Positions 3,800 to 38,626 of a stretch of 64,000 bases of DNA are shown here, piece after piece (the stretch's first letter is position 1; each line of letters opens with the position of its first letter). The position numbers were made by a program, and so were the translations under genes. Source of the stretch: a virus; IMG/VR virus record IMGVR_UViG_3300021135_000003; one strand, 5' to 3'. The notes beneath the pieces were generated by a model. The model had not been told where the DNA came from and ran no database searches. It saw nothing but the letters and a program-made list of their open reading frames with translations.

Positions 3800-4936
3800 A
3801 TGGCAGTGAATACAGCAAAACGTAGGGCAGCAACTGCGAAAGCAGAAGCGTTCATGAAAGGTGATGAGCGAGTACTCTCACAAGATAATTATATGCGTGA
3901 CTTGCTGCATTCACTGAACTATTATAATTCTAACACAGATGATAAAGATAAAAAGAAGTGGTTCATCAGCCATTATGCTAAGATTGATAAGAAAGTAGCG
4001 GTAGAACTTCTTAAAGTTGATGAATACCATTTCCGTACTCCAGGTATCCTTGCTCGACTAATTGATCTTGGATCTGAACTACAACAAGCTGAGATAAATC
4101 ATTATAACGCAGGTGTTGAGAAGTTACTCAGCCAAATTAAAGTGCGTCAAAAATCTCAAGACAAACAAGATAAGAAAGATGCTGCAGCAGCAAAAGAAGC
4201 GAGCCCATCTAATGTAATATCAATTCAACAAAGAATGGAAGAAAAGGCTCATGACTTGGCTGGCGAGATTGAAGGTGCAATTGATGACTTTGTTCTCGGT
4301 GGTTGCAAATCAGAATTTTCAACAAAGAATTATTTGTTGGCGAATCAAGTGGCTGGACCGATTGCTAAACGCATTGGAGAGTTGTTTGTCGATACTGCCA
4401 AAGAAATTAGAGAAGCGATTGAAGGCGAAGATGAACAACTGGTAGAAGGTTATTCGCATTTTAATAAACGTGAACTCAAGAAGTTCGCTGAGTTTGTTGA
4501 AGGTATTATTTCTGACTGTCAACAAATGGTTCAGACTGCAAAAGCCAATCGTGCTCCACGTAAACGCAAGGAAGTTTCTCCAACTAAGCAAGTTGCAAAG
4601 ATGAAGTACCTCAAAGAGTTCGCTGAATTAAATTTGAAATCTGTTAATCCAACAGGTATAATTGGTTCTAGTGAGGTATGGTTCTATAATACTAAGTATC
4701 GTCGTGTTGGTGTTTATCGAGCAGAGAATGGTACTGTCTCAGTTAAAGGAACTACTATCATTGGCTTTGATATTAAAGAATCTAAAGCGTTTACGCTACG
4801 TAAACCAGAGGAATTTTTTAAGGGACTTGCTATGGGTAAACGTGCTTTGACTAATGCTTTAAAAACTCTTAAGACTAAACCTTCTCAACCAAATGGACGT
4901 ATTAATGAGGAAACTATTATCCTCGGAGCATTTTAA
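3800..4936 (+). CDS. Conserved T4-like phage hypothetical protein
   Basis: 378 aa, AGGA RBS, C-terminal KPSQPNGRINEETIIL motif typical of this family upstream of rnh. Confidence 0.7.
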   Translation: MAVNTAKRRAATAKAEAFMKGDERVLSQDNYMRDLLHSLNYYNSNTDDKDKKKWFISHYAKIDKKVAVELLKVDEYHFRTPGILARLIDLGSELQQAEINHYNAGVEKLLSQIKVRQKSQDKQDKKDAAAAKEASPSNVISIQQRMEEKAHDLAGEIEGAIDDFVLGGCKSEFSTKNYLLANQVAGPIAKRIGELFVDTAKEIREAIEGEDEQLVEGYSHFNKRELKKFAEFVEGIISDCQQMVQTAKANRAPRKRKEVSPTKQVAKMKYLKEFAELNLKSVNPTGIIGSSEVWFYNTKYRRVGVYRAENGTVSVKGTTIIGFDIKESKAFTLRKPEEFFKGLAMGKRALTNALKTLKTKPSQPNGRINEETIILGAF

Positions 4937-5592: not shown

Positions 5593-6485
5593 TGATTCTA
5601 ATTGATTATTCACAGGTTGCTCTTGCAGCCATTTTGACATTCCAACGTGAGTTGAAGGGTACTGAGTCTGAGATTAAGAATCTCATTCGTCACGTAACTT
5701 TATCTACAATTAAATCATATAAGAAAAAGTATGGCAAAGAATATGGTGATGTAGTTATCTGTTGTGATGGGCGTAAATACTGGCGCAAAGAATTCTTTGA
5801 ATATTACAAAGGTATGCGCAAGAGCAATCGTGAGAAATCTGATCTAGACTGGGGATTGATCTTTGATACATTATCAGAGATGCGAACTGACCTTGCTACA
5901 TATTTCCCATATAAAGTTATTCACGTTGATCGCGCAGAAGCTGATGATATTGTTGCTGTTCTCACAAAGTACGCACAAGAAAATGAATTGGTTCAAGAGG
6001 GTTTGATTGAAGAGTCTCAAAAGATTCTTATTCTTTCTTCTGACAAAGACTTTAAACAATTACAACTATATCCAAATGTCAAGCAATGGTCTCCGATGCA
6101 GAAAAAATATATCACTGCAACTAAACAAGAAATCATTGAACATAAGATTGAACATATCGTAAAGGGTGATGCTGGCGATGGAGTGCCAAACATTCTAAGC
6201 AAAGACGATGTTTTTATGGTTGGTGAACGTCAAAAACCTATGAGCGCAAAACGTCTTCAAGAATTCTTTGATAATGGTTTTATTGCTTGTAAGAGTGATG
6301 AGGAACGTCGCAACTGGCAACGTAACGCAACTCTAGTTGACTTTGATTTTATTCCAGAAGATGTTTCAAAAACTATTATTGACACATACCTAAATACTAA
6401 ACCGACAGGTGATAAGATGGCGATTATGAATTATCTAATCGAAAACAAATGTCGTTTATTGTTAGATGAACTAGAGGACTTTTAA
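5592..6485 (+). CDS. rnh: T4-type RNase H / 5'-3' exonuclease
   Basis: MILIDYSQ, YWRK...YYKGMRK, EADDIVA, SSDKDFKQL, KGDAGDGVPNILS. Confidence 0.92.
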   Translation: MILIDYSQVALAAILTFQRELKGTESEIKNLIRHVTLSTIKSYKKKYGKEYGDVVICCDGRKYWRKEFFEYYKGMRKSNREKSDLDWGLIFDTLSEMRTDLATYFPYKVIHVDRAEADDIVAVLTKYAQENELVQEGLIEESQKILILSSDKDFKQLQLYPNVKQWSPMQKKYITATKQEIIEHKIEHIVKGDAGDGVPNILSKDDVFMVGERQKPMSAKRLQEFFDNGFIACKSDEERRNWQRNATLVDFDFIPEDVSKTIIDTYLNTKPTGDKMAIMNYLIENKCRLLLDELEDF

Positions 6486-6486
6486 T

Positions 6487-6918
6487 ATGCGTAAATATGT
6501 AACTCAAATGCTTGAGGAGATCCAAAAAGATCCAAAGTGTATTGATGGGTATAAGGGTGATGCTGTTCTTAAATTAATTTTTGAATATGCATTTATTGAA
6601 GAAAAGAAAATGATTCTTCCTGAAGGTACACCACCTTTTAAACCTGCAGCCGAACCATTGGGTATGACACCAACTAATCTATTCAGCGAAATGCGTAGAT
6701 TATATGTTTTCTGTCGAGAAGATTTGACAAAACTAAAGCGTGAGGGATTGTTTATCTCTATGCTTGAAGGTTGTCATCCTACTGAAGCAGAAGTCTTGAT
6801 TGCAGTTAAAGACCAGACACTACATAAAAAATATCCAAAGATCACACGAAAATTGGTAACTGATGCTGGGTTTATTCCACCAGTTGAGAAGAAAGCCAAA
6901 GAAAGTGCGACATCTTGA
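6487..6918 (+). CDS. Conserved hypothetical protein downstream of rnh
   Basis: LPEGTPPFKP...KREGLFISMLEG motif of T4-like phages. Confidence 0.7.
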   Translation: MRKYVTQMLEEIQKDPKCIDGYKGDAVLKLIFEYAFIEEKKMILPEGTPPFKPAAEPLGMTPTNLFSEMRRLYVFCREDLTKLKREGLFISMLEGCHPTEAEVLIAVKDQTLHKKYPKITRKLVTDAGFIPPVEKKAKESATS

Positions 6919-9467: not shown

Positions 9468-9484
9468 TTTTCCTATATATTATA

Positions 9485-9548
9485 TAACCCTACGAAATGT
9501 AAGGTTATTAAAATTTCGCTTTACTTTAATCAAAAACTGTAGTATAAT
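9485..9548 (+). promoter_or_regulatory. Stem-loop plus promoter driving the tRNA-array leader
   Basis: TAACCCTAC..GTAAGGTTA; TTTACT 9520-25, 17 bp, TATAAT 9543-48. Confidence 0.85.
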
Positions 9549-9554
9549 CAATCT

Positions 9555-9677
9555 ATGAAATCGTTAAACATATCCAGACAGCTTAATAAGCATCTACCAC
9601 TCTTAAGTGGCTGGACATGCACACGCCCAGAGATTAATGTATCATATGCGTTTGATCGAGGGGGTTTTGGAAAGTAA
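9555..9677 (+). CDS. Leader peptide of the tRNA array (40 aa, all 20 amino acids)
   Basis: MKSLNISRQLNKHLPLLSGWTCTRPEINVSYAFDRGGFGK*. ATG lies at the expected +1; the 3' end overlaps the antiterminator arm. Confidence 0.7.
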   Translation: MKSLNISRQLNKHLPLLSGWTCTRPEINVSYAFDRGGFGK

Positions 9678-9741
9678 AGTGTAAACTAAAAGTTTATTTC
9701 CCAAAACCCTCTACCTGAAAAGTTAGAGGGTTTTTTGTTTT
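9659..9741 (+). terminator. Attenuator: alternative antiterminator / intrinsic terminator
   Basis: 9659-9678 pairs with 9693-9712 (about 19 bp, one mismatch), or 9703-9713 pairs with 9724-9734 followed by a U tract. Confidence 0.8.
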
Positions 9742-9756
9742 GGCCATCGTGCCCAT

Positions 9757-9769
9757 TGTTCTTTAAAAA
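9757..9769 (+). promoter_or_regulatory. boxA (Nus antitermination) element
   Basis: TGTTCTTTAAAAA, an rrn-type boxA variant, 16 nt before the first tRNA. Confidence 0.7.
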
Positions 9770-9785
9770 TTTGCGTACCAAATGT

Positions 9786-9859
9786 TCCCGAGTGGTGTAG
9801 TGGTAGCACAACAGACTTTGACTCTGTTAGTATAAGTTCGATTCTTATTTCGGGTGCCA
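9786..9859 (+). tRNA. tRNA-Gln(UUG)
   Basis: Cloverleaf; ACAGA-CT TTG AC-TCTGT; CCA end. Confidence 0.9.
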
Positions 9860-9934
9860 TAAGTGAACACATTAAGTAAATCGCAATCCGCTGGTAATGA
9901 TCTGCCATGATTGTGGGTTAGTGTGTTCTCTTAT
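9860..9934 (+). ncRNA. Long-stem structured spacer RNA 1
   Basis: TAAGTGAACACATTAA pairs with TTAGTGTGTTCTCTTA, enclosing an inner stem. Confidence 0.45.
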
Positions 9935-10008
9935 GGGAGTATAACTTAATGGTAAAGTAGCTGGCTTTTAACCAGCAAATCAGAGTTCAATTCTCTGTAC
10001 TCCTACCA
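9935..10008 (+). tRNA. tRNA-Lys(UUU)
   Basis: GCTGG-CT TTT AA-CCAGC; CCA. Confidence 0.92.
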
Positions 10009-10013
10009 ATTAT

Positions 10014-10088
10014 GGTGTCTATGGTGTAGTGGTAGCACCCAACTCTGTGAAAGTTGTAGTACGAGATCGATACTCGTTAGACACCCCA
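10014..10088 (+). tRNA. tRNA-His(GUG)
   Basis: CAACT-CT GTG AA-AGTTG; encoded G-1:C73; CCA. Confidence 0.9.
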
Positions 10089-10095
10089 AGAATTT

Positions 10096-10171
10096 GCTGG
10101 TTTAGCTGATGTGGTCATAGCGGTGGTCTGAAGAGCCATTGAAAGTAGTTCGATTCTACTAGCCAGCACCA
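10096..10171 (+). tRNA. tRNA-Phe(GAA)
   Basis: GTGGT-CT GAA GA-GCCAT; CCA. Confidence 0.88.
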
Positions 10172-10175
10172 AATT

Positions 10176-10249
10176 CCTCGGATAGTTAAATGGTATAACG
10201 TATGCTTGATAAGCGTTTATTACAAGTTCGATTCTTGTTCTGAGGACCA
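10176..10249 (+). tRNA. tRNA-Ile(GAU)
   Basis: TT GAT AA loop; CCTCGGA/TCTGAGG acceptor stem; CCA. Confidence 0.85.
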
Positions 10250-10250
10250 T

Positions 10251-10324
10251 GCCCTATTAGTATAATGGTATTACACCTGTTTTGTAATCAGGTTACGGCA
10301 GTTCGATTCTGTCATGGGGCACCA
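10251..10324 (+). tRNA. tRNA-Thr(UGU)
   Basis: TT TGT AA loop; CCA. Confidence 0.9.
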
Positions 10325-10333
10325 AGTTTTTAT

Positions 10334-10410
<77 letters not shown>

Positions 10411-10416
10411 ATATAT

Positions 10417-10490
10417 GCCTCGTTAGTTTAATGGTAGAACTCTGCTTTTACACAGCAGTCACGGCAGTTCGATTCTGTCACGAGGTACCA
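10417..10490 (+). tRNA. tRNA-Val(UAC)
   Basis: CTGCT-TT TAC AC-AGCAG; CCA. Confidence 0.92.
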
Positions 10491-10492
10491 AT

Positions 10493-10567
10493 GCCCCATT
10501 AGTACAATGAATAGTATACGGTGCTACGAACGCTGAGAAGGTGGTTTGATTCCATCATGGGGTACCA
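10493..10567 (+). tRNA. tRNA-Arg(ACG)
   Basis: CGGTG-CT ACG AA-CGCTG; CCA. Confidence 0.85.
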
Positions 10568-10575
10568 AAGTTTAT

Positions 10576-10670
10576 GGAGAGTAATGCAGGGGAGTTGGTT
10601 CCCCGACCAGCCTTGAAAACTGGGTTCTGCTGACGAAGTGGATGGGGTTCGACTCCTCTGCTCTCCGCCA
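10576..10670 (+). tRNA. tRNA-Ser(UGA)
   Basis: CT TGA AA loop, long variable arm, GCCA end; atypical D arm. Confidence 0.85.
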
Positions 10671-10671
10671 A

Positions 10672-10735
10672 TAACCCTATAAAGTAAAAGGGATTAAAAA
10701 TATCGCTTTACTTTTATAGTTAAATGATGTATAAT
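10672..10735 (+). promoter_or_regulatory. Stem-loop plus promoter cassette (internal to tRNA array)
   Basis: TAACCCTA..AGGGATTA; TTTACT 10707-12, 17 bp, TATAAT 10730-35. Confidence 0.8.
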
Positions 10736-10760
10736 AGTGTCTTGATAAGAAAGGAAGTAT

Positions 10761-11342
10761 ATGCCAAGTGTATTCTTAGTAAGCGATACGCACTTCGGTC
10801 ACGCTGGTGTATGCCGATTCACTGAAGTTGACGGAGTCACAAAGATTCGCCCATGGACTGATCCAGATGAAATGGATGAGGCAATGGTAAAGATGTGGAA
10901 CGAAACTGTAAAGCCAACCGATAAAGTTTATCATCTTGGTGACGTAGTTATCAATCGTAAAGCATTGGGAATTATGCGTAGATTGAATGGTGATAAAGTT
11001 TTGATTCGTGGTAACCATGACATCTTTCGAGATGATGAGTACCGTGAACACTTTCGTGAGTTGCGTGCATATCACGTAATGAATGGAATGATCTTAAGCC
11101 ATATACCTATTCATGAGGAATCGTTGGGTAGGTTCGGTGTTAACATTCATGGTCACTTACACACAAATCGTGTAATGCTTCGTGGATTTAACAACAAGCC
11201 AACTGAGATTGATACTCGTTACCACTGCGTCTGCGTCGAACAAACAGACTTCAGACCCATCTTGTTTGAAGACGTGATTAAAAGAATCAAAGACGAGGGT
11301 GGTACCGTAGGATTCAAAAACGGTAACGGACCAACGATGTAA
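10761..11342 (+). CDS. Calcineurin-like metallophosphoesterase
   Basis: SDTHFGH, HLGD, GNHD, SHIP, HGHLH. Confidence 0.9.
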   Translation: MPSVFLVSDTHFGHAGVCRFTEVDGVTKIRPWTDPDEMDEAMVKMWNETVKPTDKVYHLGDVVINRKALGIMRRLNGDKVLIRGNHDIFRDDEYREHFRELRAYHVMNGMILSHIPIHEESLGRFGVNIHGHLHTNRVMLRGFNNKPTEIDTRYHCVCVEQTDFRPILFEDVIKRIKDEGGTVGFKNGNGPTM

Positions 11343-11345
11343 CTT

Positions 11346-11432
11346 GGAAGATGTGTTGCAAGGTGCGACAGGGGTTTGCTAAACCCTCGTTCAGAAATGG
11401 GCTGATAGGTTCGATTCCTATATCTTCCGCCA
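11346..11432 (+). tRNA. tRNA-Ser(GCU)
   Basis: GGGGT-TT GCT AA-ACCCT; long variable arm. Confidence 0.88.
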
Positions 11433-11435
11433 AAT

Positions 11436-11518
11436 GCGAGTATGATGAAATTGGTAAACATAGAAGACTTAAAATCTTCCGCTTCGGCTTCCCAGTTCGA
11501 GTCTGGGTACTCGCACCA
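11436..11518 (+). tRNA. tRNA-Leu(UAA)
   Basis: GAAGA-CT TAA AA-TCTTC; variable arm. Confidence 0.92.
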
Positions 11519-11525
11519 AGTTTTT

Positions 11526-11600
11526 ACGGCATTAGTATAATGGAGAATACAGTAGGCTTCTACCCTACGAATGTGGGTTCGATTCCTGCATGCCGTGCCA
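11526..11600 (+). tRNA. tRNA-Arg(UCU)
   Basis: GTAGG-CT TCT AC-CCTAC. Confidence 0.9.
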
Positions 11601-11605
11601 GTAAT

Positions 11606-11680
11606 GGGCTGGTAGCTTAATGGTAAAGCAGTCGACTCATAATCGATTGAGTGTGAGTTCAATTCTCACCCAGCCCACCA
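11606..11680 (+). tRNA. tRNA-Ile2(CAU), lysidine type (probable)
   Basis: GTCGA-CT CAT AA-TCGAT arm resembles bacterial Ile2. Confidence 0.8.
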
Positions 11681-11681
11681 T

Positions 11682-11762
11682 ACCTCGGTAGACAAATTGG
11701 TAAAGTCGTCTCTCTCAAAAGGAGAAATTTAAATGTGAGTTCGAATCTCACTCGAGGTACCA
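11682..11762 (+). tRNA. tRNA-Leu(CAA)
   Basis: TCTCT-CT CAA AA-GGAGA; short AU-rich variable arm. Confidence 0.85.
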
Positions 11763-11767
11763 GATAT

Positions 11768-11842
11768 GCACGTATGACTGAATGGTAAGGTAGCAGTCTG
11801 CAAAACTGATGTTCGTAGGTTCGATTCCTACTACGTGCTCCA
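11768..11842 (+). tRNA. tRNA-Cys(GCA)
   Basis: CT GCA AA loop; U73. Confidence 0.9.
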
Positions 11843-11852
11843 ATCTTGCAAA

Positions 11853-11916
11853 TAACCCTACTTGCAATAGGGGATTAAAAATATCGCTTTACTTTTATTA
11901 AAAAGTGGCGTATAAT
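11853..11916 (+). promoter_or_regulatory. Stem-loop plus promoter cassette (internal to tRNA array)
   Basis: TAACCCTAC..TAGGGGATTA; TTTACT 11888-93, 17 bp, TATAAT 11911-16. Confidence 0.8.
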
Positions 11917-12087
11917 AAAGGTTCTTAGTTGATAATGTTATCTAAAAGTCCTCTCTAAGTCGTTACGTCAAGTCGGACGCATGGGGCAATGGTCTTAGTG
12001 GAGGGATATCCGTGGCAGACCTTAAACAGCCAAAACAGCAGCAGTCTATTTTTGGTGGCTACAGACTATAAAGAAAAACCACCATGT

Positions 12088-12163
12088 GCTCGGTTCGTCT
12101 ATCGGTTAGGACACTGCCCTTTCACGGCAGTAAGGAGGGGTTCGATTCCCCCACCGAGTACCA
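12088..12163 (+). tRNA. tRNA-Glu(UUC)
   Basis: CTGCC-CT TTC AC-GGCAG. Confidence 0.93.
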
Positions 12164-12164
12164 G

Positions 12165-12393
12165 ATTTAATTACATTGGGTTACCAAAACCAGTAGGTGG
12201 TTTGGGAGTTCAGGATACTCGACGGAGTGTCGCTCGCCAAACTACACGAAAGATGGAAACGAAACCGAAAGGTGGATACGGTGGTCACGCTGGAGAAAGT
12301 TGGATCATAATGTGAGAAGCAACCAATCGTATGACGAATACGTGGTTAACCATCGGGTGATGGTTGTTGCTAATCATCCCAGTGTAATTAAAT
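12165..12393 (+). ncRNA. Structured ncRNA closed by a 16-bp stem
   Basis: ATTTAATTACATTGGG pairs with CCCAGTGTAATTAAAT; GC-richer interior; starts right after the tRNA CCA. Confidence 0.6.
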
Positions 12394-12395
12394 GT

Positions 12396-12591
12396 GGTAT
12401 TAGTTGTATTGTTTTGGAAAAACTCTGTGCTACCAGGATAATGCACTCTCAACGAACTGGATGTCGACTATCAAGGTTCGCGAGTTGGTGATAATGAAAT
12501 CGTATCGACGGATACACTAATAAGTTATCAACGATAAAAGCAAACGATATCGGGTGAACGATATCCATAACAAAACAATACAACTAATATC
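12396..12591 (+). ncRNA. Structured ncRNA closed by a 21-bp stem
   Basis: GGTATTAGTTGTATTGTTTTG pairs with CAAAACAATACAACTAATATC. Confidence 0.6.
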
Positions 12592-12593
12592 AT

Positions 12594-12686
12594 GGAGCAA
12601 TTGATGCTATGGCGTGTGCATCGGCGGACTGTAAATCCGTCCCCTCGTGGTAAACATTCTTGGTTCGACTCCAAGTTGCTCCACCA
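12594..12686 (+). tRNA. tRNA-Tyr(GUA)
   Basis: GCGGA-CT GTA AA-TCCGT; long variable arm. Confidence 0.88.
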
Positions 12687-12692
12687 TTTTTT

Positions 12693-12767
12693 GGCTCGTT
12701 CGTATAATGGTTATTACACCACTCTGTCTAAGTGGATACAGGAGTTCGATTCTCCTACGAGTCGCCA
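12693..12767 (+). tRNA. tRNA-Asp(GUC)
   Basis: CCACT-CT GTC TA-AGTGG; G73. Confidence 0.88.
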
Positions 12768-12771
12768 AGTT

Positions 12772-12845
12772 TTGTGGTAAGGAAAGTAAAAGGAACATGG
12801 GCAAGTCATTGGCTAGACAATGACCAGATACCGTACCTGCCACAA
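12772..12845 (+). ncRNA. Small structured spacer RNA
   Basis: TTGTGGTA(A)GG pairs with CCTGCCACAA, enclosing a GTCATTG/CAATGAC hairpin. Confidence 0.4.
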
Positions 12846-12855
12846 TTTTAATTAT

Positions 12856-12934
12856 TCCGCAAAACCCGAGCAAGGTGCATGGGCGTGACTGTTAATCACT
12901 GGTTAGTAGAGTTCGATTCTCTAATGCGGAGCCA
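12856..12934 (+). tRNA. tRNA-Asn(GUU)
   Basis: CT GTT AA loop; TCCGCA/TGCGGA acceptor stem; atypical D arm. Confidence 0.85.
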
Positions 12935-12952
12935 TATAAGTAGATAAGTTAT

Positions 12953-13030
12953 AGCGGAGTATGGAAGTGGTCTATCCGTCTGGTCTCATAAGCCATGAAA
13001 TCGTTGGTTCGAATCCAACCTCCGCAACCA
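12953..13030 (+). tRNA. tRNA-fMet(CAU), initiator-like
   Basis: 1:72 mismatch, GCGGAG/CTCCGC, CT CAT AA. Confidence 0.8.
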
Positions 13031-13037
13031 AATGAAT

Positions 13038-13120
13038 GCCCCGATGGTGGAATTGGTAGACACGCTGGTCTTAGAAGCCAGTACTTCGGTGTGAGAGTTC
13101 GAGTCTCTCTTGGGGCACCA
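13038..13120 (+). tRNA. tRNA-Leu(UAG)
   Basis: CTGGT-CT TAG AA-GCCAG; variable arm. Confidence 0.92.
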
Positions 13121-13300
13121 TTGTTGAACGTGTGAGCAAAAGATAGGGCATCCCAACTGTTAGGGAAGATAATCGCCAGTCAAAACAGCGTCCTTTATTC
13201 GGAGAGAATTTATGGCTACCCACCATAGATTGAAATGCTTGAGGATCTGGTGGCAGGAATTTAAAGCTGCCAACTAAACACATAACAGTACGTTCAACAA
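13121..13300 (+). ncRNA. Structured ncRNA closed by an 11-bp stem
   Basis: TTGTTGAACGT pairs with ACGTTCAACAA; internal hairpins ATTTATGG/CCATAGAT and TGGCAG/CTGCCA. Confidence 0.55.
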
Positions 13301-13301
13301 T

Positions 13302-13376
13302 GGTGACGTAGCACAGCGGTAGTGCATCTCCTTCATACGGAGCAGGTCAGTGGCTCGAATCCACTCGTCACCACCA
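13302..13376 (+). tRNA. tRNA-Met(CAU), elongator
   Basis: TT CAT AC loop typical of elongator Met. Confidence 0.85.
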
Positions 13377-13381
13377 GTTTT

Positions 13382-13455
13382 GGGGGATTAGTATAATGGG
13401 ATTACGGCAGCTTTGCAAGCTGTTTATGGGAGTTCGATTCTCCCATCCTCCACCA
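13382..13455 (+). tRNA. tRNA-Ala(UGC)
   Basis: TT TGC AA loop; G3.U70. Confidence 0.92.
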
Positions 13456-13461
13456 TATTAT

Positions 13462-13536
13462 GCAGGATTAATTCAGTGGTAGAATGTTTCGTTGCCAACG
13501 AAAATGTCATCGGTTCGAACCCGATATCCTGCTCCA
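13462..13536 (+). tRNA. tRNA-Gly(GCC)
   Basis: TTTCG-TT GCC AA-CGAAA; U73. Confidence 0.92.
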
Positions 13537-13543
13537 GTGTTTT

Positions 13544-13619
13544 GCCCTTGTAGCTCATTTGGTAGAGCAACTGATTAGTAATCAGTAGGTGGGCGGTTCG
13601 AATCCGTCCAAGGGCACCA
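13544..13619 (+). tRNA. tRNA-Thr(AGU)
   Basis: ACTGA-TT AGT AA-TCAGT; GCC start typical of Thr; otherwise canonical. Confidence 0.9.
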
Positions 13620-13650
13620 GTTTAATAAAATGTTAAAAAATCTAACTTAT

Positions 13651-13657
13651 CTAAATA
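13651..13657 (+). promoter_or_regulatory. T4-type late promoter (CTAAATA)
   Basis: TATAAATA variant. Other copies at 15663, 34426, 39588, 56272 (+) and 49152, 49629 (-). Confidence 0.55.
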
Positions 13658-13687
13658 GAGATATGTTAAATGCTATGAATGATAAAA

Positions 13688-14734
13688 ATGTCAAGAGTGT
13701 TATTCGTTTTAAAACGTAAAGATGATTATAATGTTGAACGTGATAATCATATTGGATTAAGCACAGGGTTATACAACTCTGCAAAATTTATGGATACAAT
13801 GCTCAACGATATTGGTATTGAATCAAAATTAGTAGTTGTTCCTGACAATAATTCAATTGATAGAGAAGTAAGCATATACAAACCAACCCATGTTATTATT
13901 GAAGCATTATGGGTTGTTCCACAAAAGTTTAATATTCTCCAGAAACTACATCCAAAAGTAACATGGATCATTAGATTCCATAGTGAGCTGCCATTCATGG
14001 CTGGGGAAGGTCCAGCAATGGATTGGATTGGGGATTACGCTGAGTTAAAAAATGTTGTTCTTGCATTTAATGCGCCACGTATGTTGCGTGAAGTAAAAAC
14101 ATTTTTAAAGATTAAAAATCCAGTTAGAATTTGGGATTATCGTGTTGTTTATTTACCAAATTTCTACCCACAAAATTTTAAACGCAGAGAAATCAACAGA
14201 GATAAAGAATATATTGATATTGGTTGCTTTGGTGCAGTTAGACCATTGAAGAATCATTTAGTTCAAGCAATCGCTGCAATAGATTTTGCAAATAGTATTA
14301 ATAAAAAGTTGAGATTTCACGTAAATGCAGGTAGAATTGAAATGCAAGGTGCTGCTGCGGTTTCAAATTTAAAAGGCTTGTTTCAGCATCTATATGAACA
14401 TGGACATCAAATGATTAACCATCAATGGACTCCTAGAGAAAAATTTTTAGAACTATGTTCACAGATGGACATTGGGATGCAGTGTAACTTCTCTGAAACT
14501 TTTAATATTGTTGGAGCAGATTTGATTAGTCAAGGTGTTCCATTGATTGGTAGCAAAGAAATACCATGGCAGATTATGGGTAAATGTGAACCTACTGATA
14601 GTAATGATATTAAATTTGGACTGAAGAACGCATATAACCATCCAAAGTTAAATGTTATGTTAAATCAAATAGCATTAAAACGCTACACAGAAAATACCAA
14701 AGAAATTTGGAAAACTTATTTTAAAGGAAAATAA
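13688..14734 (+). CDS. Glycosyltransferase (GT-B / GT4-like)
   Basis: IGCFGAVRPLKN and SETFNIVGADLISQGVPLIG donor-binding motifs. Confidence 0.75.
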   Translation: MSRVLFVLKRKDDYNVERDNHIGLSTGLYNSAKFMDTMLNDIGIESKLVVVPDNNSIDREVSIYKPTHVIIEALWVVPQKFNILQKLHPKVTWIIRFHSELPFMAGEGPAMDWIGDYAELKNVVLAFNAPRMLREVKTFLKIKNPVRIWDYRVVYLPNFYPQNFKRREINRDKEYIDIGCFGAVRPLKNHLVQAIAAIDFANSINKKLRFHVNAGRIEMQGAAAVSNLKGLFQHLYEHGHQMINHQWTPREKFLELCSQMDIGMQCNFSETFNIVGADLISQGVPLIGSKEIPWQIMGKCEPTDSNDIKFGLKNAYNHPKLNVMLNQIALKRYTENTKEIWKTYFKGK

Positions 14735-14932
14735 ATGAAACATAAAGTAAAAATTCATCGTTGGATTAATGGTTTTTTAAAAATTGATAACCATGAATTA
14801 GAAACTCTAGAAGAAGCATTAGATTTTGCTCGTCATGCAACTGAAAATGTTACACATACAGCAAAAATTTATGATGACGTAGGAGAATTAGTCCATACAA
14901 TCGCGGATCAAAATTTAAATACATACGCTTAA
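14735..14932 (+). CDS. Hypothetical protein
   Basis: AAGGA RBS; adjacent ORF. Confidence 0.65.
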   Translation: MKHKVKIHRWINGFLKIDNHELETLEEALDFARHATENVTHTAKIYDDVGELVHTIADQNLNTYA

Positions 14933-14933
14933 T

Positions 14934-15007
14934 ATCTCGATAGTGTAATGGCAGCATACCAGTCTCCAAAACTGTTGGTCGGGGTTCGAGTCCCTGTCGG
15001 GATGCCA
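14934..15007 (+). tRNA. tRNA-Trp(CCA)
   Basis: CT CCA AA loop; G73. Confidence 0.9.
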
Positions 15008-15010
15008 ATT

Positions 15011-15084
15011 GCGGGGTTAGTTTAATGGTAAAACTACAGATTTCCAATCTGTTGTTGAGAGTTCGATTCTCTCACTCCGCTCCA
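15011..15084 (+). tRNA. tRNA-Gly(UCC)
   Basis: ACAGA-TT TCC AA-TCTGT; U73. Confidence 0.92.
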
Positions 15085-23436: not shown

Positions 23437-23650
23437 TAACCCTACCAAAAGTAGGGTTTTTTCGCATTTTGGAGCACGTAAGTTATTGATTTAGAAGGGG
23501 ATTTTAGAGTCATATTTCGCTTTACTTTAATCCAGAAAACAGGTATACTTACTGTATGATAATTGAAAAGGATCTGAAGTCGGTAAAACCCTCAAAAGTT
23601 GAGGGGAATGCAAAAAATACCTTTACTTTAATCCGATTCTGTAGTAAACT
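23437..23650 (+). promoter_or_regulatory. Two tandem stem-loop/promoter cassettes with an IHF-like site
   Basis: AACCCTAC/GTAGGGTT hairpin, TAAGTTATTGATT 23479-91, TTTACT-17-TATACT 23521-49, CCCTCAA/TTGAGGG hairpin, TTTACT-17-TAAACT 23622-50. Confidence 0.75.
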
Positions 23651-23682
23651 ATATGTATAAATTGATTGAAATGGAAAATACT

Positions 23683-29653: not shown

Positions 29654-29803
29654 ATGAAATATATTATTGTATTGTTTTTATCTGGCTGCGCAAATGTTAC
29701 AATGATGGATCAGTTGCATGTTAATAATAATGCACCCAATAATTTCGTTGGCAATCCTTGTAATTTTTATGTTGGTGATTACTGTATGTGGGTCAAGAAA
29801 TGA
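29654..29803 (+). CDS. Small lipoprotein (49 aa, leaderless, not in ORF track)
   Basis: MKYIIVLFLSGC lipobox; two further Cys. Confidence 0.6.
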   Translation: MKYIIVLFLSGCANVTMMDQLHVNNNAPNNFVGNPCNFYVGDYCMWVKK

Positions 29804-37789: not shown

Positions 37790-37818
37790 TTGACATTTTA
37801 AACTATATAATGTATAAT
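37790..37818 (+). promoter_or_regulatory. Consensus sigma70 promoter of tmRNA
   Basis: TTGACA-17-TATAAT. Confidence 0.85.
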
Positions 37819-37824
37819 AGTGAT

Positions 37825-38142
37825 ATGGTTGTATGAAGCAACTAGAAAAGTGTTCTGGACGGGAGTTCGATTCTCCCCACCTCCACCAAAAGTATATTGA
37901 CGAACCGAGTTATCGGTAGCAAACATAGAAACTGTGGCAATATACTTCTGATGGGGGTGACTAGGTTTCGACAGGGCAACAAGTACAGAAGTGGACAACT
38001 TGGCAATGTGAAAGCCATTAGGATTGGGGAAACTCGGTCGAAGAAGCAAAAAACGTAAACGCAAACGACGAACTGTTCGCATTAGCAGCCTAAACACTGC
38101 TTAGGGTTTCGGTAACTTTCCTCGTAACAGAATAAGTTACCA
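37825..38142 (+). ncRNA. ssrA: Two-piece (circularly permuted) tmRNA
   Basis: T-arm plus CACCTCCACCA (ends 37888) precedes GGGGGTG...TTCGAC (37953); G3.U70; tag ANDELFALAA* at 38061-38093. Confidence 0.92.
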
Positions 38143-38170
38143 TTTTTAAATTTAAAAAGGAAGTTAATTT

Positions 38171-38626
38171 ATGAAACATTTAGTTCTAGTTGCTGCTTTA
38201 ATGGCAGCATTTTCTGCCCAAGCATTTGAGGTTGGTGTTACTGGGAGTTATGATAACGCAAAACATGATCAAACAGGTTATGGCGTAACTGTTGGTGAAC
38301 ATTTTGGTAAATTTAGCGCAACTGCTGGATTTGATCGTTATAGCAAAGATAGTTTAAACAAATATAGTATCATTGGTGGTTATGATGTTGCTCAAATTGG
38401 CTCTGCAACTTTAACTGCTAAAATTGGTGCAGTATACCTTGATCAAGAAAATTCAAAATATTATTCCGATCGTTCTGGCTATGCTGGCGTAGTTGGTGCT
38501 GGTGTATCAATCCCAGTAACAAAATCTGTTGCTGCTACTGTTGATTATCGTTATCAGGCTGGACAATCTCGTGTTGATAACTTAAATGGATCAACTGTAT
38601 TGGTTGGCGCAAAGTACGCATTTTAA
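38171..38626 (+). CDS. Outer-membrane beta-barrel protein (OmpA/OmpX-like)
   Basis: Signal peptide, alternating beta strands, C-terminal GAKYAF. Confidence 0.8.
   Translation: MKHLVLVAALMAAFSAQAFEVGVTGSYDNAKHDQTGYGVTVGEHFGKFSATAGFDRYSKDSLNKYSIIGGYDVAQIGSATLTAKIGAVYLDQENSKYYSDRSGYAGVVGAGVSIPVTKSVAATVDYRYQAGQSRVDNLNGSTVLVGAKYAF

Follow-up and report, generated by a model that had tools for sequence, protein, structure and literature searches.

The window analysed here, that is the whole stretch of 64,000 nucleotides, is assigned to a T4-like phage because its genes include those for a gp5-type baseplate hub and a baseplate wedge protein. Among cultured-phage records no relative was found of the region described below, of the flanking 251-aa protein or of the leader peptide, the sole match being to a tRNA-Gln. 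Ahead of a large array of tRNA genes, the window carries a cassette in which a promoter, a short open reading frame (ORF), two hairpins that share an arm, and a boxA follow one another (Table 1). These elements had been noticed in a first-pass annotation and are present as it had placed them: the promoter TTTACT-17-TATAAT with an ATG where transcription should start, 6 nt past the -10 element; the 40-codon ORF, whose complete set of amino acids and variety of codons were confirmed by reading the sequence and in which Asp34 is the last new residue to appear; the complementarity between the end of this ORF and a downstream segment; the terminator with its U tract that shares this segment; and a boxA followed by the first tRNA gene.

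Table 1. Coordinates of the leader cassette, the first tRNA block and the copies of the promoter motif in the window
Feature	Position	Strand	Description
Promoter-module hairpin	9486-9510	+	Fold -6.9 kcal/mol; equivalents lie upstream of other promoter copies
Promoter P1	9516-9548	+	Extended -35 motif 9516-9527 (TTTACT 9520-9525); -10 TATAAT 9543-9548
Leader ORF (leaderless)	9555-9677	+	40 codons and stop; all 20 amino acids; 34 distinct codons
Mid-ORF hairpin, candidate pause hairpin	9597-9610	+	Part of the minimum-energy fold; also found by RNAalifold, 2 pairs showing compensatory changes
Region 2, 5' arm of antiterminator hairpin B	9659-9678	+	Spans the stop codon and the 6 codons before it
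Region 3, 3' arm of hairpin B	9693-9712	+	Overlaps the terminator 5' arm
Intrinsic terminator T	9703-9741	+	Stem 9703-9713 with 9724-9734; U tract 9731-9741; -16.3 kcal/mol
rrn-type boxA with conserved extension	9757-9779	+	13-mer TGTTCTTTAAAAA at 9757-9769
First tRNA block	9786-10666	+	Gln (at 9786), Lys, His, Phe, Ile, Thr, Pro, Val, Arg, tRNA-like element
Promoter-module 12-mer, exact copies	1965, 9516, 10703, 11884, 23517, 41489		12-mer spans the -35 element
Promoter-module 12-mer, near copies	26895, 29615, 49352		

P1 matches the consensus at 10 of 12 positions, is conserved among relatives and aligns with the other copies of the promoter in the window. Its 12-mer motif occurs at six exact sites, far more than expected by chance, and the internal promoters previously proposed at 10707 and 11888 proved to be further exact copies of the same extended motif. 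The repeated unit appears to be an early-promoter module that consists of the 12-mer over the -35 element, a 17-nt spacer and a TATAAT-like -10 element, often with a small hairpin just upstream and an ATG at the predicted start. As several promoter copies have an ATG at this position, leaderless ORFs in this phage are probably not confined to the head of the tRNA array. At 29654-29803, a 49-codon leaderless ORF starting 6 nt past a copy of the module encodes a classic lipoprotein signal with the lipobox Cys at its end. Another copy is followed at +1 by a 34-codon ORF (23556-23660); about 30 nt beyond it, and before a gene for a 308-aa protein, lies a G+C-rich hairpin, and this region may represent a second leader-type element.

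The 17-mer of the boxA occurs exactly in more than 114 phage contigs and is identical to the boxA in the 16S-23S spacers of Polynucleobacter, other Burkholderiales and Pseudomonas; in the sequences L181, L190, L224 and L167 the exact copy is located between spacer tRNAs and 23S rRNA. This identity points to the likely host group, freshwater Burkholderiales, and also suggests Nus-dependent protection of a long untranslated transcript beyond the decision point. The tRNA-like element at 10576-10666, missed by ARAGORN, scores 36 bits on a long-arm tRNA-Sec model and is probably the last gene of the first block, a class II tRNA. In total, the window contains 26 tRNA genes and one tmRNA gene. The array (9786-15084) covers 19 amino acids; no tRNA-Asn was found in it, yet the leader ORF contains three Asn codons, a point against the attenuator reading given below. 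Among relatives, in L046 (about 12080-12153) and for the second array tRNA of L037, ARAGORN assigns the anticodon TTA (ochre-suppressor-like) or ATA to a tRNA directly after tRNA-Gln, and no such tRNA is present at that place in the window. The tmRNA gene (37796-38184) specifies the tag peptide ANDELFALAA, and the relative L006 also has one (6457-6837). The joint presence of a tmRNA and of the leader suggests that the phage invests in handling stalled ribosomes.

The codons of the leader ORF are more diverse and rarer than expected. Windows of genes contain 24.3 +/- 2.6 distinct codons, against 34 in the leader ORF (P = 1e-4), and for its peptide 29.2 +/- 1.9 would be expected (P = 0.011). Its codon adaptiveness, 0.477, is below the expected 0.663 (P = 0.002), in line with the earlier remark that it draws on codons the phage otherwise uses sparingly. 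There is no run of any one regulatory codon, and the composition is near-flat and complete.

The conservation of this arrangement was surveyed in uncultured phages. A few contigs with the same arrangement were retrieved through the flanking proteins and 29 contigs with an 18-mer from the ORF end; a metallophosphatase encoded within the array was dropped as an anchor, being too widespread. Retrieval anchored on boxA only, which does not presuppose the ORF, brought the total to 166 sequences including the window. An array head was defined as a boxA with a tRNA within 60 nt downstream and no tRNA in the 400 nt upstream, which gave 64 distinct heads in uncultured phage contigs, 61 of them with an intrinsic terminator. 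The ORF was chosen blind to its composition, as the longest one with a -10 element or a Shine-Dalgarno (SD) sequence before its start and a stop no more than 70 nt before the terminator. By this rule a leader ORF lies upstream of the terminator in 57 of the 61 terminator-bearing heads, corresponding to 49 distinct peptides of 32-50 codons, and in all but one of the 49 the stop codon is located 19-31 nt before the terminator 5' arm. All 20 amino acids are present in 36 of these peptides, 19 in another 10 and fewer in the remaining 3. The four heads missed by the start rule also have leaders with all 20 amino acids, and in heads seemingly devoid of an ORF the start is a GTG after an SD sequence and the peptides are complete.

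The cassette was found only at array heads. Internal tRNA blocks carry the promoter and boxA without a leader, so that block-specific leaders for them can be ruled out here. In L043, a gene with its own promoter (4362-4886) is inserted between the leader cassette and boxA. The leader peptide matches no protein family and no phage protein, and only four relatives, all unnamed, were found in a large protein database, as gene callers miss the leader ORF.

How often an ORF of this size would contain all 20 amino acids by chance, a question raised in the first-pass annotation, was estimated with three null models: 0.6% of 40-residue windows of phage genes do so, as do 1.0% of independent draws from the pooled composition of the leaders themselves and 3.6% of draws from a uniform composition. 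The leader sequences are related, so the counts are not independent and overstate the number of independent events. At 50% identity, the peptides form nine clusters with little similarity between them beyond that imposed by RNA pairing, and seven of the nine are complete, the signal thus recurring in separate clusters. Within the family of the window, the mean number of distinct residues is 19.74 and fell to 18.18 +/- 0.16 when residues were shuffled within alignment columns; none of 5000 shuffles reached the observed value. Residues that are missing from their usual column also tend to reappear at another position. In the 16 sequences of this family in which Tyr is absent from its usual column it occurs elsewhere in the peptide (16/16), and the 7 sequences with Tyr in that column never contain a second one; displaced residues were likewise recovered elsewhere for Gln (13/13), Glu (7/7), His (6/6) and Cys (7/9). 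Among the 46 leaders with at least 19 amino acids, codons of both Ser boxes are present in all 46 (35.4 expected), of both Leu boxes in 41 (30.8 expected) and of both Arg boxes in 33 (19.2 expected), and the number of distinct codons exceeds the peptide-based expectation in every leader. This content is strongly non-random, and the sequence comparisons argue that evolution, not chance, has kept every amino acid in the leader.

The end of the ORF and the terminator are tied by RNA pairing. In the window, hairpin B comprises 19 pairs with a folding energy of -23.7 kcal/mol (z = -4.4), and only 1 of 200 shuffles folds as well. The two conformers, when forced on the whole leader, are equal in energy (-50.0 versus -50.1 kcal/mol) in the comparison of folds that the first-pass annotation had proposed. 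Terminator T was missed by a consensus terminator scan only because its loop exceeds the limit of that scan. Among 27 relatives, 94.9% of the cells of helix B are paired, versus at most 68% when the register is slid. Of the cells of T, 97.3% are paired, with an inner pair changed from U-A to G-C in six sequences. Covariation in hairpin B is modest within the family of the window (three pairs changed on both sides), and the helix is also found by RNAalifold; in L048, L061, L051 and L054, one- or two-sided changes in the arms keep the pairing, sometimes at the cost of an amino acid.

A B-equivalent pairing of the last 4-12 codons of the ORF with the terminator 5' arm is present in all divergent families, and in each of the 46 leaders the distance from the start of region 2 to the stop is 4-12 codons. 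The sequence of the terminator stem varies between families with its complementarity kept. Across leaders, folding energies range from -18 to -29 kcal/mol for hairpin B and from -12.6 to -18.8 kcal/mol for T, B being the stronger of the two. L145 provides an internal control, as its ORF, the only one with just 14 amino acids, also lacks the B pairing (-0.6 kcal/mol). Swapping ORF ends and terminator arms between families gave a contrast of -17.6 versus -13.3 kcal/mol, which is only moderate because all arms are C-rich. ORF length, codon diversity and pairing are thus kept across the collected relatives while the peptide drifts, which is the pattern that the first-pass annotation had proposed to look for.

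Nascent-RNA snapshots were used to follow the two hairpins in place of equilibrium folds of the full-length leader under ribosome masks, which were uninformative. In nascent RNA without a ribosome, the 3' end of the ORF captures the terminator 5' arm in 41 of 46 leaders. Capture also occurs with a ribosome anywhere upstream and is blocked by a ribosome over the last 8-12 codons, and a ribosome set at the stop codon in full-length folds leads to T in all 46 leaders. At equilibrium, many relatives adopt T as the state of lowest energy for any ribosome position, and in the window antitermination is obtained mainly for stalls at codons 25-33, as a short helix (9623-9628 with the G run) can hold region 2. 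Since equilibrium folds fail to reproduce the switch in many relatives, the model depends on co-transcriptional folding kinetics.

With footprint models that place the leading edge of the ribosome at A+7 to A+11, a stall would leave B free for a mean of 17.8-18.4 amino acids; one to three amino acids per leader lie too near the hairpin for sensing, commonly Asp (in the family of the window), Val and Gly. The original proposal that a stall at almost any codon frees the arm would therefore hold for about 17-18 of the 20 amino acids and fail in the window for Asp and possibly Phe, which lie in the masked zone of the leader, as its own caveat about stalls in the last codons had anticipated.

In view of this architecture, in which the ORF end forms the antiterminator 5' arm overlapping the terminator in every family, we consider it likely that the cassette is a ribosome-mediated (leader-peptide) transcription attenuator that monitors the overall aminoacyl-tRNA supply ahead of a T4-like phage tRNA array; this supports the reading first given to it. 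The order of events would be as follows. Transcription from P1 would start at or beside the ATG at 9555, so that a ribosome loads directly on the leaderless ORF. The G-rich last codons would then pair with region 3 and, by holding the terminator 5' arm in hairpin B, allow read-through into boxA and the tRNA genes. A ribosome that keeps pace and occupies the last codons or the stop codon would mask region 2, the terminator would form and transcription would end. The time a ribosome needs to cross the leader would depend on nearly every aminoacyl-tRNA, given that no amino acid is missing from the leader, that Ser, Leu and Arg are each encoded from both of their codon boxes and that rare codons are numerous, and a shortage of any one aminoacyl-tRNA would delay the ribosome and increase tRNA transcription, which closes a feedback loop on decoding capacity. 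Past the decision point, boxA would load the host Nus complex for the long untranslated transcript. We infer the direction of the switch and its physiological trigger from these elements, and on the same sequence evidence the cassette probably raises tRNA transcription when the decoding of almost any amino acid slows.

The degree to which the tRNA genes depend on this switch appears to differ between lineages. In the window, the 23-nt spacer between T and boxA contains no promoter-like site, the next promoter being that at 10707, and at least two other families also lack a promoter between T and boxA, so that in these lineages the first tRNA block needs read-through. The strict gating of the first block that had been proposed would therefore hold for the lineage of the window but not for relatives in general: of 53 distinct spacers that separate T from boxA in relatives, 37 contain a strong sigma-70 promoter and 16 do not, and in most relatives the array is thus independent of the switch and the cassette would be at most an added input. 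Between the terminator and boxA of the window, a short inverted repeat around CATCG (9742-9753) looks like the remnant of a deleted promoter, as relatives have the same core in the second promoter or in its upstream hairpin.

The full promoter and boxA unit that directly follows T in most relatives is also what one would expect if the translation-sensing switch had a main output other than the tRNA array, with the tRNA blocks driven by their own promoters. The signal might then be the terminated RNA of about 185 nt or the peptide itself, or a downstream promoter might be modulated by interference from read-through. The use of the same unit without a leader by internal tRNA blocks agrees with this explanation, and there is precedent in Sinorhizobium, in which attenuator-derived RNAs and leader peptides are reported to act in trans (PMC6614838, PMC7298713). 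It is nevertheless unlikely, as several lineages, the window included, have lost the second promoter and keep the cassette 8-26 nt from boxA and a tRNA block, the sequence of the peptide is weakly constrained, and the cassette does not occur away from array heads.

For an attenuator of tRNA genes the leader ORF must be translated, and the evidence for this comes from the maintenance of its frame and from its start contexts. Despite numerous indels, 57 of the 61 heads keep the frame open. Among the 49 leaders, 37 start with a leaderless ATG, 7 with GTG and 4 with ATG preceded by an SD sequence, and 1 with an ambiguous TTG; this switching of starts between leaderless ATG and SD-led GTG or ATG makes it very likely, as judged from the sequences, that the leader is translated. 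The variable sites are spread almost evenly over the three codon positions (28, 27 and 30), which is a weak periodicity, and the case for translation therefore does not draw on dN/dS. Together with a synonymous share of only 38% among single-base codon differences, this weak periodicity indicates little constraint on the peptide, a pattern that suits a leader and speaks against a functional micro-protein.

A conventional small gene that runs from a promoter to a terminator of its own and encodes a functional micro-protein, with B as a stabilising 3' structure and the adjacency to tRNA genes as inherited gene order, is accordingly an improbable explanation, to which we give less credence than to a different output of the switch. 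The strength of the terminator, the conservation of a central block and a C-terminal GGFGK within the family of the window, and the annotation of a few relatives as hypothetical proteins would be in its favour. However, the peptide is unrecognisable between families, in which completeness, ORF length and stop-to-terminator spacing persist. The conserved C-terminus can be attributed to the constraint of RNA pairing, as its residues change when the pairing partner allows (L054, L061, L051). The low synonymous fraction indicates weak selection at the protein level, the peptide has no counterpart among known families or phage proteins, and the retention of all 20 amino acids and of both codon boxes would be left unexplained. 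Least probable is a non-translated structured leader RNA, whether a riboswitch, a T-box-like element or a processing signal, with an incidental open frame: the leader is indeed highly structured as a whole (z = -3.25) and its helices are conserved, but no T-box or other Rfam family matched 9480-9785 even at E-values up to 1, the frame survives the indels, the start context alternates between leaderless and SD-led, and the completeness statistics have no explanation at the level of RNA.

Returning to the attenuator, its wider role may be that of a homeostat. On balance, we lean towards the view that phages of this T4-like group use a leaderless test ORF, in which each amino acid and each split codon box is represented by one codon, to time the ribosome against RNA polymerase and open the tRNA array when any aminoacyl-tRNA becomes limiting. 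A shortage could arise from a codon-usage mismatch, host shut-off, starvation or tRNA-cleaving defence nucleases; a link of the leader to anticodon nucleases in particular is speculation.

Such a leader would bear on why phages carry large sets of tRNA genes and on how these are controlled. Kept complete, it would act as a small natural device that senses decoding capacity as a whole and is coupled directly to tRNA supply, and it could explain how a phage reacts to tRNA depletion, including depletion by defence nucleases. If the proposal is correct, feedback control of phage tRNAs could be tested with simple reporters, and the element would supply synthetic biology with a general reporter of translation stress. 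The completeness rule would also be an unusual, purely compositional selective constraint on a peptide. To our knowledge, the known attenuators sense one or a few amino acids and control biosynthetic or synthetase genes, and a full-text literature search, mostly outside subscription journals, found neither attenuation of tRNA genes nor a leader with all amino acids described. On the homeostat view, no attenuator before this cassette would have had tRNA genes under its control or the full set of amino acids as its input.

The closest parallels are the enterobacterial attenuators trpL, hisL, leuL and pheL and the multivalent thrL and ilvL. They share with the phage cassette, as proposed here, a short translated ORF in the 5' leader, an antiterminator 5' arm at the ORF end, and a mutually exclusive antiterminator and intrinsic terminator, such that a fast ribosome leads to termination and a delayed one to read-through. 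Unlike them, the phage leader has no runs of a single codon, contains every amino acid about once and is on a leaderless mRNA; moreover, the cassette is phage-borne, would control tRNAs and not biosynthetic enzymes, and has a boxA after the terminator. The attenuator of pheST in E. coli, with the pheM leader, is a case of leader-peptide attenuation of a gene of the translation machinery; it differs in that it senses only Phe, controls a synthetase instead of tRNAs and has an SD-led leader. In T-box riboswitches, too, the status of tRNA sets the choice between antiterminator and terminator upstream of translation-related genes, but the T-box binds one uncharged tRNA directly and involves no ORF.

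Other known elements share single features of the cassette. In ermC, msrD and tlrB-type leaders, a stalled ribosome is reported to remodel the downstream RNA (PMC6851288, PMC10314930). Such antibiotic-induced attenuators resemble the proposed phage attenuator in reporting on translation health but need a specific arrest peptide and a drug, whereas the phage leader peptide drifts and only its composition is kept. The leaderless polycysteine short ORFs of mycobacteria are reported to be amino-acid-responsive attenuators (bioRxiv 10.1101/834739), and thus provide a precedent for a leaderless short ORF in this role; they differ in that a single amino acid is sensed in bacterial operons, and control of tRNA genes is not known for them. 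The phage boxA has the same 17-mer as the rrn boxA of Nus antitermination in Burkholderiales and Pseudomonas but, unlike it, heads a tRNA array and lies downstream of the decision point. Considering these likenesses and differences together, the cassette most likely represents the known mechanism of leader-peptide attenuation, the new element being a complete set of amino acids in place of the regulatory codon runs.
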